Below are positions 7,264-61,891 of a DNA stretch of 64,000 nucleotides, in pieces. This DNA comes from a virus. Lineage: Duplodnaviria > Heunggongvirae > Uroviricota > Caudoviricetes. A program made the position numbers and the translations under genes. Where the stretch lies: IMG/VR virus record IMGVR_UViG_3300034102_002845. The stretch is one strand, 5' to 3'. A model generated the notes under the pieces. That model was not told the origin of the DNA. It ran no database searches and saw only the letters and a list, made by a program, of their open reading frames with translations. How positions within the stretch are numbered: the first letter of the stretch is position 1; each line of letters starts with the position of its first letter.

Positions 7264-7350
7264 ACCGGTTAACCCCCTTGCTCCGGGGCGGTTTCCCCCT
7301 TGTTTCTGCGGTGCAGAAACGGTATAGTTACTTTATTGACCTCCGACCCA

Positions 7351-8088
7351 ATGACCACCTTTCAGTTCTACGAAGTCGGCGGTGCCGTGAGAGACTCCCT
7401 CCTTGGGATATCGAGCAAGGACGTTGACTTCTCCGTTGTTGCTCCCGAGGGCGTCTTTCCCACGGCAGACAGCGCCTTTCTGGCAATGGAATCCCAGCTC
7501 ACCGGGCAAGGCTTTCAGGTCTTCGAATCTCGCCGTGAGTTCCTGACCATTCGTGCACGGGTCCCGAAGGGCCATGCGCTGGAAGCCCGCACCGCTGTCG
7601 CTGATTTCGTACTGGCCCGCCGAGACGGTCCTTACAGCGATGGCAGGCGGCCAGACTGGGTCGCTCCTGGTACCCTGGCCGATGATCTGGCTCGGCGTGA
7701 CTTTTCTGTAAATGCACTCGCCCGAGGCGTGGACGGCACCCTGATAGACCTGTTCGGTGGTGTGGAGGATTTGGGTGCCAGTCTGCTGCGCTTTGTGGGT
7801 GACCCCACGAACAGAATCGCTGAGGACGGGCTAAGGGTTGTGCGTGGCTTCCGCTTCTACATCACCAAAGGTCTTGACATCGAGGCCGAAACTTGGAAAG
7901 CCCTCATCTCCGAGTTCGCTGCGGAGAAGCTCTCGAAAGTTTCCGTCGAAAGGGTGCGCGAAGAACTGAACAAAATGTTCCGTGCAAACACCCTGCACTC
8001 TCTTCGCTTGCTCGGTGAGCTGCCTCAGCACACCCAAGAAGCGATCTTCCGCGACGGTCTCCGCCTCGACGCCACAATGGCTCAGTGA
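7351..8088 (+). CDS. cca: class II tRNA nucleotidyltransferase (CCA-adding/poly(A) polymerase family), compact
   Basis: VGGAVRD.LLG..SKDVDF, RRDFSVNALA and EDGLRVVRGFRF motifs. Confidence 0.85.
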   Translation: MTTFQFYEVGGAVRDSLLGISSKDVDFSVVAPEGVFPTADSAFLAMESQLTGQGFQVFESRREFLTIRARVPKGHALEARTAVADFVLARRDGPYSDGRRPDWVAPGTLADDLARRDFSVNALARGVDGTLIDLFGGVEDLGASLLRFVGDPTNRIAEDGLRVVRGFRFYITKGLDIEAETWKALISEFAAEKLSKVSVERVREELNKMFRANTLHSLRLLGELPQHTQEAIFRDGLRLDATMAQ

Positions 8089-18702: not shown

Positions 18703-18829
18703 TGACTAAGAGTGTTAGCGGTTAGCATGTTCCTTTGGGCGAAAACAGTAAGATAGAACGAAGGCCAAGTTCCGTATCTGTAAGTAGTTTTGGACAGAGG
18801 AGGTTGAGGTTCGAGTCCTCATTAGTCAA
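18703..18829 (+). ncRNA. tRNA-like RNA with ~52-nt hairpin insertion in the anticodon arm
   Basis: TGACTAA/TTAGTCA acceptor, TGAGG-TTCGAGT-CCTCA T arm, insert closed by AAAAC/GTTTT. Confidence 0.65.
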
Positions 18830-19781: not shown

Positions 19782-19958
19782 TTGCCACTTTGCGCTGGAA
19801 AGATAAACCAGGCTGCCGGTGGCTCAAACCCCCCTTGTTACAAAATTCCTGCTAAACAAGGGGGGGGGGTAAGCGCAGGCTCATCCTTAGATGCCATTTG
19901 TTGGTTTCCTTAGTCTAAGGTGGTATAAAGGTAAACCAACAATCCCTCCGGAGGGGAA

Positions 19959-20023
19959 GGTGCGTGGCTTAGTGGTAAAGCTGGTCCGAAAGGCTGAACG
20001 CAGGTTCGATTCCTGCCGCACCA
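19959..20023 (+). ncRNA. mini-tRNA with anticodon arm replaced by a GAAA tetraloop hairpin
   Basis: GGTGCG/CGCACC acceptor, GCTT/AAGC D stem, canonical T arm. Confidence 0.6.
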
Positions 20024-20252
20024 CTCAAAGTGAGATTCGAGAGTTAGTCGCCTCGACACCCGCAGGGGTGTAGCTTAAAAGACTCCCTAACAGAGCGCAC
20101 TCAACCCCAGTCATCCCACGGCGCTGGTCGCATAGCCGAAGGCACTTCCTGAAGAAGGAACAACTACCGCTGGCGGACCTGGGGCGGTTTGTTGTAAAAC
20201 AATTGGTAATCAGTAGCGTCTCGCGAGCAACGCTGATACAACCAGGTCCTGC

Positions 20253-21172: not shown

Positions 21173-21246
21173 GGGCTTACATGTACCAAGGCTGGCGAGA
21201 TTGCTTTGCAAGCAAACTGTGAAGAGTTCGATTCTCTTTAGGTCCA
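21173..21246 (+). tRNA. trnA: tRNA-Ala(TGC), atypical D arm
   Basis: G3.U70; loop TTTGCAA. Confidence 0.8.
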
Positions 21247-21264
21247 CTTTCGCTAACGCGAAAA

Positions 21265-21382
21265 CACGAGGGAGAAATGTCGGTTCAAGTCCGACCCTGG
21301 GAGCCTATAACGTAGGGTCCTGGGTAGTTTAACTGGTGCCAAGGACTTGTTATCAGTACGCACAAGTCCAAAAACTTCTCCC
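21265..21382 (+). ncRNA. apparently circularly permuted tRNA (3' half 21265-21303 precedes 5' half 21318-21382)
   Basis: acceptor TCCTGGG/CCTGGGA and anticodon stem TTCTCCC/GGGAGAA pair between the halves. Confidence 0.7.
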
Positions 21383-26022: not shown

Positions 26023-26103
26023 TGGGGTGTAGCATAATTGGTAATGCAGCTGGCTGTTAACCAGTGTCGAAAGACAATGAAGGTTCGAATCCTTCCACTC
26101 CAG
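26023..26103 (+). tRNA. trnN: tRNA-Asn(GTT) with extra GAAA-capped variable arm
   Basis: loop CTGTTAA; TGTC-GAAA-GACA arm. Confidence 0.85.
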
Positions 26104-26169: not shown

Positions 26170-26324
26170 CGAAGTGTGCCGGAATTGGTATACGGCGGTG
26201 TGGATTCAGCCAATACGGATGGGGTTGTGAACAAATAGCAACCTCCTAGCTCATGGTTGCAACCACCGATCAGGTAACAGCTAGACGTAATCCTGATATG
26301 AGAGTTCGAGTCTCTCCACTTTGG
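26170..26324 (+). ncRNA. 155-nt tRNA-Leu-like scaffold with expanded anticodon domain and variable arm
   Basis: CGAAGTG/CACTTTG acceptor, Leu-type D loop, GAGAG-TTCGAGT-CTCTC T arm. Confidence 0.65.
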
Positions 26325-26418: not shown

Positions 26419-26503
26419 CGCCCCATCGACTAACGGCGTCGTAGCCAGGTTAGGTCGCTACTTTCTTAAGGTAGAAATGCCGGTTCGACTCCGGCTGGGG
26501 CGA
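26419..26503 (+). tRNA. trnK: tRNA-Lys(CTT) with ~13-nt hairpin insertion in the D loop
   Basis: CTACT-TTCTTAA-GGTAG; GGC-GTCGTA-GCC insertion. Confidence 0.7.
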
Positions 26504-26629: not shown

Positions 26630-26632
26630 GAT

Positions 26633-26721
26633 GGAAGATTGGCCGAGTGGTTGAAGGCGACGGTTTGCTAAACCGTTGAGCTGCGCAAGCAGCTCCGTGA
26701 GTTCGAATCTCACATCTTCCG
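26633..26721 (+). tRNA. trnS: tRNA-Ser(GCT)
   Basis: long variable arm; loop TTGCTAA. Confidence 0.9.
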
Positions 26722-26751
26722 TTGTTCTCTCCGAAGAACTACAAGAAAAAT

Positions 26752-26822
26752 GCCCTTCAAGCATTGTGGTGATGCAGCAGTTTTGTAAACTGCAGAGCAG
26801 GGTTCGATTCCCTGGCAGGGCT
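26752..26822 (+). tRNA. trnT: tRNA-Thr(TGT)
   Basis: GCAGT-TTTGTAA-ACTGC. Confidence 0.85.
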
Positions 26823-26934
26823 TTGCTCCGTGATTCGCTCAGTTAACCGAACGAACCGGGGCGGTTTCCCACCCTTTCGCTTCACGGTGAAACCAGCTAA
26901 ACTTAAATTGTTACCGTTGGTCCTCCAAATCAAA

Positions 26935-27159
26935 ATGGCTCAAGCAACTTTCGGCACCCTTAAAGGGTTGAGTGTTCGCAAAGAGAACGAGCTTTGTGTA
27001 TCCATCGCTGGAGAACTCACCGAGCTTTTGGAAGAGGGAGCATCCGCTCCTACCCGAGACGAGATTCTTGCGAAGCTGCAGGACTGCGTCAGGATGTACG
27101 GCAACGGGCACCTTGACGATTTCTTCGTTCGCAAGGTTGTATTTGAGTTCACCCTTTGA
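26935..27159 (+). CDS. hypothetical protein
   Basis: ATG after promoter, within track ORF 26830..27159. Confidence 0.55.
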   Translation: MAQATFGTLKGLSVRKENELCVSIAGELTELLEEGASAPTRDEILAKLQDCVRMYGNGHLDDFFVRKVVFEFTL

Positions 27160-27207
27160 TACGGCGGTTCCCGTCCTTGTTTCTGCCCCGCAGAAACGCT
27201 ATACTAA

Positions 27208-27283
27208 AGGGGTGGTTGAGAGAGGGCTTCGCCCTCACCTCCTCCCCGCTTTTGCGAAAGCAAAAGGCAACTTGAAAATTTAA
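27208..27283 (+). promoter_or_regulatory. tRNA-operon leader 3 with GAAA hairpin and boxA-like GCAACTTGAAAATTTAA
   Basis: conserved leader. Confidence 0.75.
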
Positions 27284-27288
27284 TACGG

Positions 27289-27360
27289 GGGGCATTAACT
27301 CAGCGGTAGAGTATCCGGCTTTTAACCGGTCAGTCCTCGGTTCGAATCCGAGATGCCCCA
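27289..27360 (+). tRNA. trnK: tRNA-Lys(TTT)
   Basis: loop CTTTTAA. Confidence 0.9.
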
Positions 27361-27427
27361 TTTTCTGCTTTGCAGAAAAACGGCAGCACGTTCAGGGACC
27401 GATTCAATTCCGGTCAACAGAGTTAAC

Positions 27428-27586
27428 GGGAAATTAGCTCAGCGGTAGAGCCCTGGGCACATTACCCAGGTGAGTGCTTCAGTACGAGTGTCGAATGGCG
27501 GATTGATCCCCGACCTTCGCCTTTGTAACAGCACGCTCACAACCTGATCAGTTGAGAGAGCGTTGGTTCGATTCCAACATATCCCA
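27428..27586 (+). ncRNA. 159-nt tRNA(CAT)-like RNA with 92-nt variable-region insert
   Basis: CTGGG-CACATTA-CCCAG arm, normal D and T arms, insert 27470-27561. Confidence 0.7.
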
Positions 27587-27636
27587 TTGAAAACCTTTCG
27601 GTTTTCTAGCTACAAACTTACCGTGTTATGGTAATT

Positions 27637-27724
27637 GGAGAGAGTCCGGCTGGACGAGGAGACCGTCTTGAAAACGGTTACAGGGGGGAGACCCCCTGCG
27701 CAGGTTCGATTCCTGTTCTCTCCG
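27637..27724 (+). tRNA. trnS: tRNA-Ser(TGA)
   Basis: loop CTTGAAA; long variable arm. Confidence 0.85.
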
Positions 27725-27769
27725 TTTGCCCCACTGTGGGCAATCTGTTCACCCCACTGTGGTTGAAGT

Positions 27770-27841
27770 GCGAATGTAACTCAGCGGTAGAGTACCTCGT
27801 TGCCAACGAGAATGTCGAGGGTTCAAATCCCTTCATTCGCT
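27770..27841 (+). tRNA. trnG: tRNA-Gly(GCC)
   Basis: loop TTGCCAA. Confidence 0.9.
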
Positions 27842-27869
27842 CTTTCCCTTAAATAGGGATCACAGTCAA

Positions 27870-27951
27870 GCCCGCCTGGTGAAATTGGTATATACGCTAG
27901 TTTTAGGAACTAGTGCCGAAAGGCGTGGGAGTTCGAGTCTCCCGGCGGGTA
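27870..27951 (+). tRNA. trnL: tRNA-Leu(TAG)
   Basis: loop TTTAGGA; long variable arm. Confidence 0.9.
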
Positions 27952-28001
27952 TGTTCTCTTTACGGAGAACTCTAGCTCCTTGACTTAATTCAGGGTGCAA
28001 A

Positions 28002-28120
28002 GAGCAAGTAGCTCAGTTGGTAGAGCGGCAACCTCCTCTGAGTCTCGCAAGAGACTCTCGGTAAAGGACCGTAACGCTGGAGGGCAAAGCAAGCCGTTGG
28101 TTCAAGTCCAACCTTGCTCC
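28002..28120 (+). ncRNA. 119-nt tRNA scaffold with anticodon arm replaced by a branched domain
   Basis: GAGCAAG/CTTGCTC acceptor, canonical D and T arms, GAGTCTC-GCAA-GAGACTC hairpin. Confidence 0.7.
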
Positions 28121-28195
28121 TTTCCTTGCTACCTCAGCCAAGGGTTTACTTCCCCCTTGGGAAGCTATCATAGCTTCTATACTCAAGGCAGCCGC

Positions 28196-28266
28196 TTCGA
28201 AGTCGTCTAACGGTAGGACACCTCCCTTTGAAGGAGATTATATAGGTCCGAATCCTATCTTCGAAA
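28196..28266 (+). tRNA. trnQ: tRNA-Gln(TTG)
   Basis: loop CTTTGAA. Confidence 0.8.
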
Positions 28267-28317
28267 CTTGCCTTGAGAAGTTTACTCCTAGCTAAAAACG
28301 CTATAGTAAAGGTGTAA

Positions 28318-28391
28318 CGCGGACGAGTGTCACGGTAGTCACGCTGGGCCCATAACCCAGAGGAGCAGGGGTTCAATTCCCCGGTCCGCCA
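28318..28391 (+). tRNA. trnfM: initiator tRNA-fMet(CAT)
   Basis: unpaired position 1; three consecutive G-C pairs in the anticodon stem. Confidence 0.8.
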
Positions 28392-28413
28392 TTGTTTTGC
28401 TTTCGCAAAACTT

Positions 28414-28464
28414 AGGTGATTCAGCGATTCATACCTCACTTTCTTTGGTAGAAAACAATCATCT
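28414..28464 (+). ncRNA. 50-nt repeated structured element, copy 1
   Basis: GRTGATT-CAGCGATTCA...TTTC-TTTGGTA-GAAA..AATCATC. Confidence 0.75.
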
Positions 28465-28495
28465 AGCCTAACTTTGTTGGGAACTCTCAAAGCAT

Positions 28496-28568
28496 GGTGG
28501 TAGAAGCCTAAGGGATGGGCAACTGGTTGTGAACCAGTAATTAGCGGGTTCGAGTCCCGTCTATCACC
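28496..28568 (+). tRNA. trnH: tRNA-His(GTG) with encoded G-1
   Basis: loop TTGTGAA; C73. Confidence 0.85.
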
Positions 28569-28603
28569 CTTTTCGCTTACGCGAAATTACACTAAAGCAA
28601 AAT

Positions 28604-28676
28604 GCGGTCGTAACTCAGTCGGTAGAGTGTCTTCCTTCCAAGTAGAAAGTCGCGTGTTCGAGTCACGTCGACAGCT
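28604..28676 (+). tRNA. trnG: tRNA-Gly(TCC)
   Basis: loop CTTCCAA. Confidence 0.8.
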
Positions 28677-28707
28677 CTTTTCTCTCACGAGAAAACTCAA
28701 GTAAAAT

Positions 28708-28789
28708 GCGGGTATAGCTCAGCGGTAGAGCACTTGTTTTCCAAACAAGAGGCGAATAGTTCACGCAGGTTCAAATCCTGTTACCCGCT
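28708..28789 (+). tRNA. trnG: tRNA-Gly(TCC) with 15-nt variable region
   Basis: CTTGT-TTTCCAA-ACAAG; GCGAA-TAG-TTCAC arm. Confidence 0.8.
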
Positions 28790-28820
28790 CTTTTCTCTCA
28801 CGAGAAAACTTAAGTAAAAT

Positions 28821-28891
28821 GCCGGAGTCGTCTAGTGGTAAGACTACTGCTTCCAAACCAGAAAACGGGGGTTCGATTCCTCTCTCCGGTG
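28821..28891 (+). tRNA. trnW: tRNA-Trp(CCA), weak anticodon stem
   Basis: loop TTCCAAA by canonical numbering; G73. Confidence 0.6.
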
Positions 28892-28957
28892 TAGTTTGCA
28901 CGGAAAAAGGACGGTTTAGACCCCTGTGTCTGCCTCGCAAAACGCTATGCATACCTT

Positions 28958-29725: not shown

Positions 29726-30475
29726 TTGAAGATGGAGCCACGGATCTATTTATACCGGATAACTTTTGAAGGTAGACCCGAATGGTATTTGGGTATACAT
29801 AAAGAGAAAAAATTTGACGAGTACTATATGGGTTCTCCATGTACTCACAAGGAATTTTGGAAACTTCATACGCCTATAAAAGAGATTCTAGAAACTTTCG
29901 ACAACTCTGAAAAGGGTTGGAAAACAGCCAATATGCGGGAGCAAGAGCTAATTTCTCCTCACCTGAACGATCCCCTATGCTTGAACGAGAATTGCGGATC
30001 AGTAACTTCTTTGGCAGTTAGATCTAACACCATGAAGAGGCTAAATAAACTATGGTGGTCCGACGAAAAACACAGAGCCATGCTTTCTAAAGCCAGAAAA
30101 CTCCAGTGGCAAAACCCGGAGTATAAAGAATTCATGCTTAAAAGAGCGTCTGAAGCTAATTTAAAGAGATACGCTTGCGGGGCCGAAAGGGAAAGGATGT
30201 CCAACACAATGACAGAAAAGTGGAAAGACCCTGAGTTTAGAGACAAAATGAGGTCCCTTAATAGTTCTCACAGACTGTCCGATGAAACTATAAAGGAAAG
30301 ATTTGAAAAAGTCAAAACTGCCGGGATAGACCTAAGTAAGTATGGTTGGGTACAAAAGGTATCTAACCTTTGGGGAGTTTCCCATACTCAGGTTAAAAGA
30401 GTATTTAAAAAGCACTGGAAGGGGGAACCCCCTTACTCCAGGAAGCTTTCTACTAAGGCACTGTTGGCCCCCTGA
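29726..30475 (+). mobile_element. free-standing homing endonuclease-like gene (paralog of 9018)
   Basis: RIYLYRITFE...YLGIHKEKKFDEYYMGSP; WKDPEFR repeats. Confidence 0.7.
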
Positions 30476-33174: not shown

Positions 33175-33246
33175 ACTCGGTTAGCTCAGCGGTAGAGCGC
33201 CCTCCTTACAAGTGGGATGTCGCCGGTTCAATCCCGGCACCGAGTA
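33175..33246 (+). tRNA. trnV: tRNA-Val(TAC)
   Basis: loop CTTACAA. Confidence 0.9.
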
Positions 33247-39942: not shown

Positions 39943-40266
39943 GTGAAATCACGCGACTTTTGCTACTGGCTTCAAGGATTCTTCGAGCTTGCCGAACCGG
40001 TCACACTCACACCGACGCAAGTTGAAACGATCCAAAACCACTTGAGTATGGTTTTCTACCACGAGATTGACCCTTCCTTTAGTGGTCCGAAAGAACAAGA
40101 AGCCCTAAATAGGCTTCACTCACCAAATATACACTCGGTTAGCTCAGCGGTAGAGCGCCCTCCTTACAAGTGGGGGGTGCCACAGAGTGAATCCACGTGT
40201 CCAGAGTCGGGGCACCATACGGCGCACGGAGAAGATCGTACATCGACCACCAGGATTAAATGTTGA
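39943..40266 (+). CDS. hypothetical protein (F..WLQGF family) containing an embedded tRNA-Val fragment
   Basis: motif; 40131-40174 identical to 33173-33216. Confidence 0.65.
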   Translation: MKSRDFCYWLQGFFELAEPVTLTPTQVETIQNHLSMVFYHEIDPSFSGPKEQEALNRLHSPNIHSVSSAVERPPYKWGVPQSESTCPESGHHTAHGEDRTSTTRIKC

Positions 40267-40462: not shown

Positions 40463-40513
40463 CTGAGGGTACAATAAATCTTTGCTTAAAACCCCGCCAC
40501 ACGGCGGGAACAA

Positions 40514-58157: not shown

Positions 58158-59300
58158 ATGACAATTACACGAAAAGAAATTGAAGACGGGATGATCCTGT
58201 TTTGCAAGTCAGGCAGCCACGCCTATGGCCTCAACACCGAGATGTCTGACCTGGACTTTAAGGGCATCTGTGTTGCGCCACAGCGGTTTTACACCACTCT
58301 CGAAACATTTGAGCAAAAGGATAAAGGGTGGGCAGGGGAGCAACAAGACGAGGGTGAGTTCAACTCAAGATTCCCTGAGTTAGATAATTCCGACTCAGTG
58401 GTGTACGGCATTCGCAGGTACCTGAGCTTGTTACGGTCGCAAAACCCAAACATTTTGGAGATGCTGTGGCAAACTCCCGAAAGCTACCTATACCTTGACT
58501 TTCTGGGGCAGTCGCTAATTGATAACCGAAGGAAGCTCATTTCCAAGAGAATCTCTGGCACATTCGTTCAGTACGCAAGGTCCCAGATCAAGAAAATGGA
58601 GACTCACCGCAAGTGGCTCTTAAACCCTCCAACACGGCGACCGACGTGGGAGGACTACGGGGTTTCTTCGCCGAGCTTAACCCCCTCTCAAATCGAGTCA
58701 TTCATTGAGTACTTGTACTTGCTGATTAAAGACAGAATCGAATACTACCAGCCTTCAGTCGAGCTGTACGAGTTACTCAACGACCGAGTTGATTGGAAGG
58801 GAATCCTGAAGCAGAGTGTCTTACCGGAAGAGTGCTTCGACGAGACGCAGAAAATCACGAGGGCAAGTGACGAGTACATGGCCCTTCTTCACTCAAGCCA
58901 GCAGTACCGGTCAGATTTAAAACGGTGGAGTAATTACCAAGATTGGTTGACTAATCGGAATGTGAAGCGATCCGAAATTGAGCGGGCCTGTGGGTACGAT
59001 GGGAAGAACGCCAGCCACTGTGTTCGACTTATGAAAATGGCTATTGAGGGAATGCGAACCGGAGAGCTTCTTGTGAATAGGAAGTTAGCGGGGGACGCAG
59101 ATTTTCTTCTGGACATTAAGTACGGCAAGATTACGTATGACGAACTAAGCTCAATTGTAACTCAACTGTTTAAGGAGGCTGAGCACGTAATGACGAACGA
59201 GTGCGTCTTACCGAGCACGGTAGATGACCAACTCATCAATACTCTTTGCGCTGAGACTGTGGAAAAATTTCAAAGTCTCGGTTGTATTGAGAACCGGTGA
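58158..59300 (+). CDS. DNA polymerase beta-superfamily nucleotidyltransferase (RlaP-like)
   Basis: GSHAYG....SD.D.KG; NPNILEML; YDGKNASHCVRL. Confidence 0.8.
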   Translation: MTITRKEIEDGMILFCKSGSHAYGLNTEMSDLDFKGICVAPQRFYTTLETFEQKDKGWAGEQQDEGEFNSRFPELDNSDSVVYGIRRYLSLLRSQNPNILEMLWQTPESYLYLDFLGQSLIDNRRKLISKRISGTFVQYARSQIKKMETHRKWLLNPPTRRPTWEDYGVSSPSLTPSQIESFIEYLYLLIKDRIEYYQPSVELYELLNDRVDWKGILKQSVLPEECFDETQKITRASDEYMALLHSSQQYRSDLKRWSNYQDWLTNRNVKRSEIERACGYDGKNASHCVRLMKMAIEGMRTGELLVNRKLAGDADFLLDIKYGKITYDELSSIVTQLFKEAEHVMTNECVLPSTVDDQLINTLCAETVEKFQSLGCIENR

Positions 59301-61305: not shown

Positions 61306-61499
61306 CTGAAGGAGACCTAGAAAAGTTGGTAGAAAACGGAGACATTCTGAGCTACTCTTACTTAGAGGTTAAAGATTACCAGGGCTCACACTGCGGAGAA
61401 TACCTACAACTCAATTTACCGTCCGGAGCTTGCATAGGGGTAAGCTCGTGGTCAACTCCCGCCCCTGAAACGAGTGGGCTAAGAATAGGAGTTTATTAG
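61302..61499 (+). CDS. hypothetical protein
   Basis: ATGA overlap. Confidence 0.5.
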   Translation: MTEGDLEKLVENGDILSYSYLEVKDYQGSHCGEYLQLNLPSGACIGVSSWSTPAPETSGLRIGVY

Positions 61500-61530
61500 G
61501 CGGACAGTCCTACCATACGACTCTAAACTA

Positions 61531-61831
61531 GGGGTAGCTCTGGAAGATAGTGCCCTATACAGGGGTTCGAATCCCCTCACCTCCATTTGAGAACGTGACC
61601 GTCCCTTCTTCAACCTTCCGACTTACTGAGAAGGCAGGGTCACTGTGGGTTAAACTCCCACCTCTAGTCAAGGGGGTGCCATGGTCTCGCTAGGGTAAAG
61701 ATGTCGCCTGAGTGAAAGCCGCTTGCATAAGCACAAAATAGACGCTAACAACATCGTCAAATTCGAGAGGATTGCCGTTGCCGTTTGAGCAACCGCACTC
61801 TGACTCATAACTCGGGGGGTTTCGGCCCCCT
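61531..61831 (+). ncRNA. ssrA: two-piece (circularly permuted) tmRNA: acceptor piece ~61531-61585, intervening segment, coding piece from 61672; tag (A)ANNIVKFERIAVAV
   Basis: AGGGG-TTCGAAT-CCCCT T arm and CACCTCC-A lie upstream of GGGGGTG (G3.U70); helix TAGGGTA/TGCCCTA; tag ORF 61744-61788. Confidence 0.9.
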
Positions 61832-61891
61832 TACACCGCCAACTTTCCTGGCCAAAACAGCACCCTACACTCCAACCCACGCTGAAACACT

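Follow-up and report, generated by a model that had tools for sequence, protein, structure and literature searches.

IMG/VR record IMGVR_UViG_3300034102_002845 represents part of an uncultured jumbo phage (Duplodnaviria; Heunggongvirae; Uroviricota; Caudoviricetes), and the public sequencing runs that contain this sequence are lake-water metagenomes. The stretch analyzed here (64,000 nucleotides (nt) in total, referred to as the window) contains 44 genes called by ARAGORN between ~16.6 and 46 kb, 43 of which are tRNAs. Within this array, a tRNA-framed RNA gene of 159 nt is located on the plus strand at positions 27428-27586, which combines a tRNA body with an initiator-type anticodon arm and an additional domain of 92 nt, and which on balance appears to specify a stable RNA that does not decode. 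The gene was compared with alleles from the nearest record, a 277-kb IMG/VR virus that is ~94% identical over the window stretch (G001), from two contigs of the JGI metagenome collection (L030 and L029), and from three RNA-library contigs (X20, X21 and X22). G001, L030 and X20 contain the full-length gene, while L029 (DNA) and X21 and X22 (RNA libraries) contain a short form.

Structure of the 159-nt gene

With relaxed filters, the Rfam tRNA model (RF00005) recovers the gene over its entire length (27428-27586) at 38.9 bits (E = 1.3e-6), above the gathering score of 29, with the acceptor, D and T arms aligned to model positions 1-71 and ~100 nt inserted at the expected anticodon arm. Neither ARAGORN without intron mode nor Rfam at default filters called 27428-27586. 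The whole RNA is predicted to fold at -55.8 kcal/mol (z = -3.5), and model R1 gives 198 bits for the window gene and 200-201 bits for its alleles. As judged from sequence, Rfam alignment and folding, the tRNA frame consists of a 7-bp acceptor stem (GGGAAAU/AUAUCCC; 27428-27434 and 27579-27585) followed by A73 (27586), the connecting nucleotides U8 and A9 between the acceptor 5' strand and the D arm, a canonical D arm (GCUC-AGCGGUA-GAGC; 27437-27451) in which A14, G18 and G19 are present, and a T arm (GUUGG-UUCGAUU-CCAAC; 27562-27578). The terminal CCA is not encoded.

The D arm is directly followed by hairpin H1 (CCUGGG-CACAUUA-CCCAGG; 27452-27470; fold z = -3.25), an initiator-type anticodon arm with CAU at 27460-27462 and A33 at 27459; position 37 (27463) is U in the window, while L030 and X20 have A. 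Between H1 and the T arm, where class II tRNAs have their variable arm, lies the 92-nt extra domain (27470-27561), which comprises two further hairpins. H2 (27474-27533; fold z = -2.4) is a long irregular stem with the apical loop AUUGAUCC (27502-27509) and forms the core of the domain, whereas H3 (GCUC-A-CAAC-CUGAUCA-GUUG-AGA-GAGC; 27535-27561) carries its loop at 27544-27550. A long stem GUGAG-UGCU...AGCA-CG-CUCAC spanning 27470-27541 is a valid alternative pairing (z = -3.1), which competes with the base of H3. This stem had been noticed in a preliminary description of the locus made from the sequence alone, together with the three consecutive G-C pairs, CAT and A33 of H1, the further hairpin that corresponds to H3 and the perfect T arm, and sequence, folding and Rfam bear out each of these features.

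The apical loop of H2 and the loop of H3 (CUGAUCA) could form five contiguous Watson-Crick pairs around GAUC at 27505-27508 and 27546-27549, with a chance probability of ~1-1.5%. A loop-loop contact of this kind would possibly lock the module, although the GAUC palindrome could equally be compatible with dimers. No internal promoter or terminator was found, and the stop-to-stop reading frames of the 159-nt gene are at most 56 amino acids (aa) long and have no support. Furthermore, no ribozyme, riboswitch or intron family of Rfam matched the gene at E <= 10, with tRNA being the sole family detected.

An initiator-type arm on a valine-like body

H1 shares 15 of 17 nucleotides with the anticodon arm of the phage's own initiator tRNA (28344-28360) in the window and in G001, and 16 of 17 in L030, where the sole difference lies at position 33 (A in H1 versus C in the initiator). 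As in initiator tRNAs, CAU is combined with three G-C pairs closing the loop (29-41, 30-40 and 31-39; CUGGG/CCCAG), a feature restricted to H1 and the phage initiator and found in 0 of the 43 called array tRNAs. The designation of the gene as an initiator-like tRNA in the preliminary description therefore holds for this anticodon-like arm, but fails for the molecule as a whole, in which positions 1 and 72 are paired (G1-C72) and the pair at 11:24 is C-G rather than of the A11-U24 type, and to which the closest frame is that of tRNA-Val(UAC). The normal fMet gene that had been placed at 28318 is real (28318-28391; Rfam 31.1 bits), with a C1xC72 mismatch, three G-C pairs and CAU. In the loop of this phage initiator (CCCAUAA), C replaces U at position 33; its D stem is odd, and ARAGORN does not call it; the tRNA-Val(UAC) of G001 likewise has C33.

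The body of the 159-nt gene is elongator-type and Val-like (G1-C72, A73), and its nearest normal tRNA by model R1 is the tRNA-Val(UAC) of G001, which has an identical D arm, A73 and an acceptor stem that is one compensated pair apart. In addition, a relic of a second D arm (GAUCAGUUGAGAGAGC) was identified at 27546-27561, where it constitutes the 3' part of H3 and the last 16 nt of the extra domain. The relic matches the canonical D arm at 13 of 16 positions, a score reached by 8 of 20,000 shuffles, and six other such D-arm matches occur in the window, five of them in tRNA or tRNA-framed genes and one elsewhere. The T stem GUUGG/CCAAC is found in the window only in this gene and in a second tRNA-framed gene at 28002-28120 (T arm 28096-28112). 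Taken together, the Val-like body, the copied initiator arm, the relic D arm and the shared T stem show the gene to be a mosaic of tRNA pieces, which looks to have been assembled by recombination among the tRNA genes of the array. A tRNA ancestry of H2 was also considered and rejected, as the best local match (tRNA-Ser(GGA)) was not significant (p about 0.1-0.3).

The complete cloverleaf with canonical spacing from the D to the anticodon arm and the presence of CAU, A73 and G1-C72 are features expected of a working Met-accepting tRNA with a giant variable arm, which methionyl-tRNA synthetase would charge via the anticodon and A73, and which would serve elongation or, as an unusual case, initiation. 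This would also agree with A37 in the L030 and X20 alleles, with the odd variable arms of the array tRNAs Gly(UCC) (28708) and Asn (26023), and with the phage initiator itself having no U33. However, the H1 loop reads CACAUUA in the window and G001 and CACAUAA in L030 and X20, so that every allele has A33 and two have U37, whereas 41 of the 43 called array tRNAs have U33 and 40 have a purine at position 37. A33 and U37 are thus outliers within the array and atypical for decoding. In E. coli, formylation of the initiator tRNA requires an unpaired 1:72; an initiator-type stem on an elongator-type body that offers no 1:72 mismatch for formylation fits neither role, and the array already provides for both, with an initiator at 28318 and an elongator Met tRNA at 40513. 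Decoding tRNAs have either 4-5 nt in the variable region or a single arm, and the natural variable arms of class II tRNAs (Leu, Ser, Tyr and Sec) are ~10-25 nt long and form one hairpin. The 159-nt gene resembles class II tRNAs in having extra structure between the anticodon and T arms, but unlike them it contains 92 nt folded into two hairpins, a Val-like class I body and a non-canonical loop (A33). We know of no decoding tRNA in which the variable region is not several times shorter, and passage of this region through the ribosome is unlikely. Overall, we consider a Met-accepting tRNA to be quite improbable.

Sequence variation and a genomic deletion allele

All substitutions within the gene fall into the D, anticodon-like or T loops or restore an acceptor pair. 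An A5xA68 mismatch in the acceptor stem is confined to the window allele, while an A>T exchange at 27581 (AUUUCCC) results in a perfect 7-bp stem in G001, L030, L029, X20, X21 and X22. The remaining substitutions affect the D loop (27446), position 37 of H1 (27463, U or A) and the T loop (27570 and 27572; variants GAUU, GAAU, AAAU and GAGU). Furthermore, a 2-nt deletion (CA) at 27538 in L029, X20 and X21 removes a bulge and makes the H3 stem a perfect CUCAAC/GUUGAG.

In the RNA libraries X21 and X22, a joint skips positions 27446-27517 (72 nt) with CTTC in between. Because the same joint (GCGG-CTTCC-GCC) is present in the DNA contig L029, it is an allele and not a splice, namely a genomic deletion of 68 nt (27446-27513, plus strand) plus a one-base shift. 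The short allele lacks H1 entirely, along with the 3' strand of the D stem and with the tip and 5' half of H2, and is not a valid tRNA; ARAGORN calls nothing without intron mode, and the Thr(UGU) that it returns in intron mode only is a forced call that was rejected. As the short form has the CA deletion and the T-loop G in common with the long allele X20, it is a recent derivative of a long allele. The exact deletion junction was not found in IMG/VR. No other joints were seen in the four RNA libraries, and contig X20 runs unbroken and unspliced across 27375-27621. Coverage gaps over parts of the stretch in some RNA-library runs have no bearing on expression. There is thus no evidence for splicing of the 159-nt gene.

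These observations bear on a reading of the locus as an intron-bearing tRNA, the removal of whose insert would yield a normal tRNA such as Val(CAC), or Ile(GAU) via H3. A Val(CAC) with a 78-nt intron is indeed what ARAGORN proposes in intron mode, U33 is present in H3, whose spacing to the T arm is canonical, and tRNA introns have been reported in Lak phages (Devoto et al., bioRxiv 10.1101/356790). However, the anticodon stem of the Val(CAC) call is poor (two Watson-Crick pairs, two G-U pairs and a C-A mismatch among five), its CAC is destroyed in the CA-deletion alleles, and the call was discarded; H3, in turn, has C37. No junction pair yields a canonical anticodon arm, including the best junction for a protein-spliced intron (for bulge-helix-bulge motifs, no formal scan was made). 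Group I introns have a catalytic core (P3-P9), are usually longer than 200 nt and are located in the anticodon loop, whereas the insert is placed after a complete hairpin and, at ~92-100 nt, falls well below the size of group I or group II introns, with no Rfam intron or ribozyme at E <= 10. Together with an unspliced RNA-library contig that covers the whole gene and a sole joint that also exists in DNA, this makes an intron very unlikely. In favor of an intron, an unrelated viral contig (IMGVR_UViG_3300047557_001710; L016:13932-14053) has a tRNA-Val(UAC) gene that is interrupted by 47 nt precisely at the canonical position 37/38. This insertion is predicted to form a hairpin, and as its removal would restore a perfect CUUACAA loop, the L016 gene is more promising as a genuine short tRNA intron of a phage.

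Distribution

Among 14 viral records searched with model R1, the full-length gene was recovered from G001 only. A complete relative of 279 kb (G002), whose CCA-adding enzyme is 72% identical, has a smaller array with no long tRNA-like gene. The window and G001 each contain the insert only once, and it is not a repeated or mobile module. No look-alike of the insert was found in G002, in INPHARED (blastn) or in IMG/VR beyond G001, which was also the sole return of the IMG/VR pattern scans. In bacterial genomes, the H2 core had 24 matches versus ~17 expected by chance, with no common context. Relatives obtained via the open reading frame at 29726-30475 were mostly unrelated contigs and were set aside. 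In a further RNA-library strain (X19), the segment 27380-27768, which contains the 159-nt gene and tRNA-Ser, is replaced by 194 other bases; cassettes are therefore exchanged within the operon. Given this limited distribution, the gene is a young, accessory cassette of one phage clade.

Purifying selection on the extra domain

The window was compared with L030 over 26632-28916 and with G001 over 26632-28789. While spacers differ by 9.5% (L030) and 12.4% (G001) and canonical tRNA genes by 2.0% and 1.5%, respectively, the 92-nt extra domain (27470-27561) contains 0/92 differences in either comparison (Fisher test of domain versus spacers, p = 3e-4 for L030 and p = 2e-5 for G001, with G001 and L030 being non-independent lineages). 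H2 is free of substitutions in G001, L030 and X20. The frame of the gene and H1 together have 4/67 changes relative to L030, and the cargo is therefore at least as constrained as the frame that carries it. The conservation proposed as a check in the preliminary description is thus borne out. The comparison is evidence for purifying selection on the 92-nt module and not for a particular fold.

Several features of the locus would be expected of a decaying chimeric pseudogene that arose by illegitimate recombination between array tRNA genes and is carried in the operon without function. These include the mosaic make-up (Val-like body, initiator arm and relic D arm), the A5xA68 mismatch and U37 of the window allele, the persistence in lake populations of a 68-nt deletion allele that is not a valid tRNA, the replacement of the cassette in X19 and its absence from G002, and the truncated tRNA-Val copy at 40133-40189 in the same array. 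By contrast, decay is difficult to reconcile with 0/92 changes in the extra domain next to adjacent spacers that differ by 9.5-12.4%, with a domain that is more conserved than frame and H1, and with substitutions that avoid the stems. In addition, nucleotides of tertiary interactions are intact (A14, G18G19 and the T-loop UUC), and the acceptor stem is perfect in every other allele that covers the site. We therefore regard a pseudogene as rather unlikely.

The operon and other tRNA-framed genes of the array

A promoter-like sequence (TTGTTT-17-TATACT) followed by the leader motif AAAGGGGTGGTTG (27206-27218) was read from the sequence at 27177-27218 on the plus strand. The leader motif AAAGGRGTGGTTG has four copies in the window (18345, 25407, 27206 and 29458) versus 0.44 expected, and in each case a tRNA block begins with its first tRNA ~75-80 nt downstream of the motif. 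From this arrangement we infer a putative promoter at the start of the operon; a stringent promoter scan did not call the TTGTTT-17-TATACT site. The 159-nt gene is the second cistron after tRNA-Lys(UUU) and is followed by genes for Ser, Gly and Leu tRNAs, the RNA at 28002, Gln, fMet and others. Short hairpins follow nearly every tRNA cistron and also the 159-nt gene, whose 3' flanking hairpin (GAAAACC-UUUC-GGUUUUC; 27589-27606, plus strand; fold z = -4.1) retains its stem in G001 and L030 while the loop varies.

The array contains at least four other tRNA-framed RNAs. The gene at 28002-28120 (119 nt, Rfam 45.4 bits) combines a tRNA frame with a three-way junction and a GCAA-tetraloop hairpin. 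It resembles the 159-nt gene in its operon, T stem and standard D arm, but differs in having another acceptor stem, unrelated cargo and no anticodon-like arm. This gene is also conserved between strains, with 1-4 changes in 119 nt (G001 and L030). Long tRNA-framed genes are furthermore located at 26170-26324 (155 nt), 18703-18829 (127 nt) and 21177-21305 (129 nt; a weak call), all of which consist of an acceptor stem, a T arm and 50-90 extra structured nt and have no sequence in common with the insert of the 159-nt gene. A tRNA-shaped gene of 67 nt at 19958-20024 (Rfam 40.4 bits) has a GAAA-loop hairpin in place of the anticodon arm and thus no anticodon. It contains GGUCCGA, the motif by which vertebrate Y RNAs contact Ro60, but this heptamer occurs nine times on the plus strand of the window.

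Other unusual members of the array include an 85-nt tRNA-like gene at 26419-26503, for which ARAGORN assigns the anticodon UUA (which would read UAA) and, in intron mode, Pro(AGG). Its loop has no U33, Rfam scores 26435-26503 at 31.4 bits, and it may represent a suppressor or recoding tRNA or be degenerate. Both tRNA-Gly(UCC) (28708-28790) and tRNA-Asn(GUU) (26023-26103) contain extra variable-arm hairpins, which are unusual for class I isoacceptors. A tRNA pseudogene fragment at 40133-40189 is a truncated copy of the 5' two-thirds of tRNA-Val(UAC) (33175-33246), and recombination and decay therefore do occur in the array. In addition to its tRNAs, the window encodes a tRNA nucleotidyltransferase (CCA-adding enzyme) at 7300-8088, a second nucleotidyltransferase at 58158-59300 and a permuted tmRNA of the two-piece type at 61496-61879. 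The phage makes a heavy investment in translation and RNA-maturation functions of its own.

Comparison with known tRNA-like RNAs

Small RNAs within phage tRNA genes are represented by RNAC and RNAD of phage T4, which are drawn with tRNA-like features and matured by tRNA-processing enzymes. They are stable and transcribed with the tRNA genes, but what they do biologically is unknown (PMC3014915). The 159-nt gene is positioned in a tRNA operon, and an RNA-library contig covers it, although a discrete, stable species cannot be shown by contigs. Unlike RNAC and RNAD, to which it is likened by description and not by sequence, it has a full cloverleaf frame, a copy of the initiator arm and a 92-nt module. 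A second parallel is provided by the Lak megaphages, for which "enigmatic introns" in tRNA genes have been described (Devoto et al., bioRxiv 10.1101/356790). The Lak tRNA genes likewise have over-long, highly conserved inserts and alleles with and without them across populations, and it was tRNAscan with eukaryotic settings that interpreted the inserts as introns of the anticodon loop. In the 159-nt gene, on the other hand, a complete anticodon-like arm precedes the extra sequence, a normal tRNA is not restored by any junction pair, and half of the tRNA body is lost as well in the allele without the insert. Most likely, the 159-nt gene is of a similar kind to T4 RNAC/RNAD and to the tRNA genes with "enigmatic introns" in megaphages.

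YrlA and other bacterial and phage Y RNAs also combine a tRNA-like module with an extra stem, the former consisting of T and D arms that are substrates of tRNA enzymes and the latter serving as a protein handle (PMC4201824). The ends of YrlA, however, form the Ro60-binding stem and its tRNA-like part is internal, whereas the ends of the 159-nt RNA form a true acceptor stem. If the RNA were nevertheless a Y-RNA-like partner of a phage Ro60-like protein, the long hairpin would be the docking site, and H2 does contain GUCGAAUG (27490-27497), which fits the motif GNCGAAN0-1G proposed for recognition by Rsr (Chen et al., 2014; PMC4201824). Furthermore, G001 encodes a 510-aa protein with DUF2828 and DUF7788 and a faint vWA signal, which adjoins two long tRNA-like genes. 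Against such a partnership, with 0.63 motif copies per kb of the window the chance of at least one occurrence in the insert is ~0.07. Neither YrlA nor Y_RNA matched the gene, the Pfam TROVE and VWA models found nothing in G001, and the 510-aa protein has no PDB sequence match. In addition, the two tRNA-like RNAs beside the DUF2828 gene have neither the motif nor similarity to the insert. We thus found no support for a Ro60 link at this locus, which we judge to be highly improbable. The DUF2828 and DUF7788 protein (faint vWA_2 signal) is encoded at G001:62137-63666, equivalent to L094:6138-7667 (minus strand), and its two long tRNA-like neighbors (123 and 112 nt) are located 1.2-2.2 kb downstream.

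Proposed function

Based on its anatomy, mosaic origin, purifying selection on the module, operon context and accessory distribution, our favored interpretation, which we hold to be somewhat better than evenly supported, is that the gene encodes a stable RNA that has a tRNA frame, is put together as a mosaic from pieces of tRNAs and does not decode. The RNA would be transcribed as the second cistron of the phage tRNA operon and could be excised by RNase P and 3' trimming enzymes, as the acceptor/T-arm helix and the D/T elbow are intact. CCA would then be added by a CCA-adding enzyme, one of which the phage encodes (7300-8088). The resulting frame would display a copy of the anticodon arm of the phage's own initiator (CAU, three G-C pairs, A33 and a variable position 37) together with the two-hairpin module of 92 nt, which we propose to be the selected functional part. 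Ordinary decoding by the 159-nt RNA is unlikely. Most likely, it would act by binding or titrating a tRNA-recognizing protein or complex, and the bound factor perhaps reads the initiator anticodon arm.

As to the target, the idea with the greatest appeal is that the RNA would be a decoy or tether for a factor that reads initiator tRNA; the preliminary description had considered a decoy for IF2, methionyl-tRNA synthetase or the P site, or a carrier RNA. A more specific version of this proposal holds that the initiator arm grafted onto an elongator body with a dedicated protein- or RNA-binding module makes the RNA a processed, CCA-tailed decoy for a host factor. Such a decoy might soak up a factor that attacks or inspects initiator tRNA, or deliver the module to it; conceivable targets are a VapC-type anticodon nuclease specific for the initiator, or IF3 together with the 30S P site. 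The change to A33 would render the RNA uncleavable or non-decoding. We consider this version unlikely.

Several points weigh against a functional, non-decoding RNA. No homolog was found outside close strains (R1 records, G002 array, INPHARED, IMG/VR and bacterial genomes). The gene is dispensable in nature, as documented by the 68-nt deletion allele, the replacement in X19 and the absence from G002, and the window's own allele carries both the A5xA68 mismatch and U37 in the H1 loop. Since all known alleles are at least 97% identical, covariation cannot be shown. Finally, an RNA that is discrete, processed or CCA-tailed cannot be demonstrated from contigs, and DNA may be present in RNA libraries.

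Implications for phage tRNA arrays

Large phages carry dozens of tRNA genes, and over-long "tRNAs" among them are skipped by annotation tools or labeled as intron-bearing. The 159-nt gene described here is most likely neither intron-bearing nor junk, with an extra domain that is as constrained as real tRNAs. What is new at this locus is the deletion allele, the selection test, the identity of the initiator arm, the relic D arm and the placement in the operon. As the deletion allele illustrates, splicing of "tRNA introns" from phage metagenomes should be inferred only after comparison with DNA alleles. Should such RNAs be tRNA-scaffolded effectors or decoys, they would add a new level to the control that phages exert over host translation or over tRNA nucleases directed against phages, and would be nature's equivalent of the tRNA scaffolds that are engineered for RNA expression.

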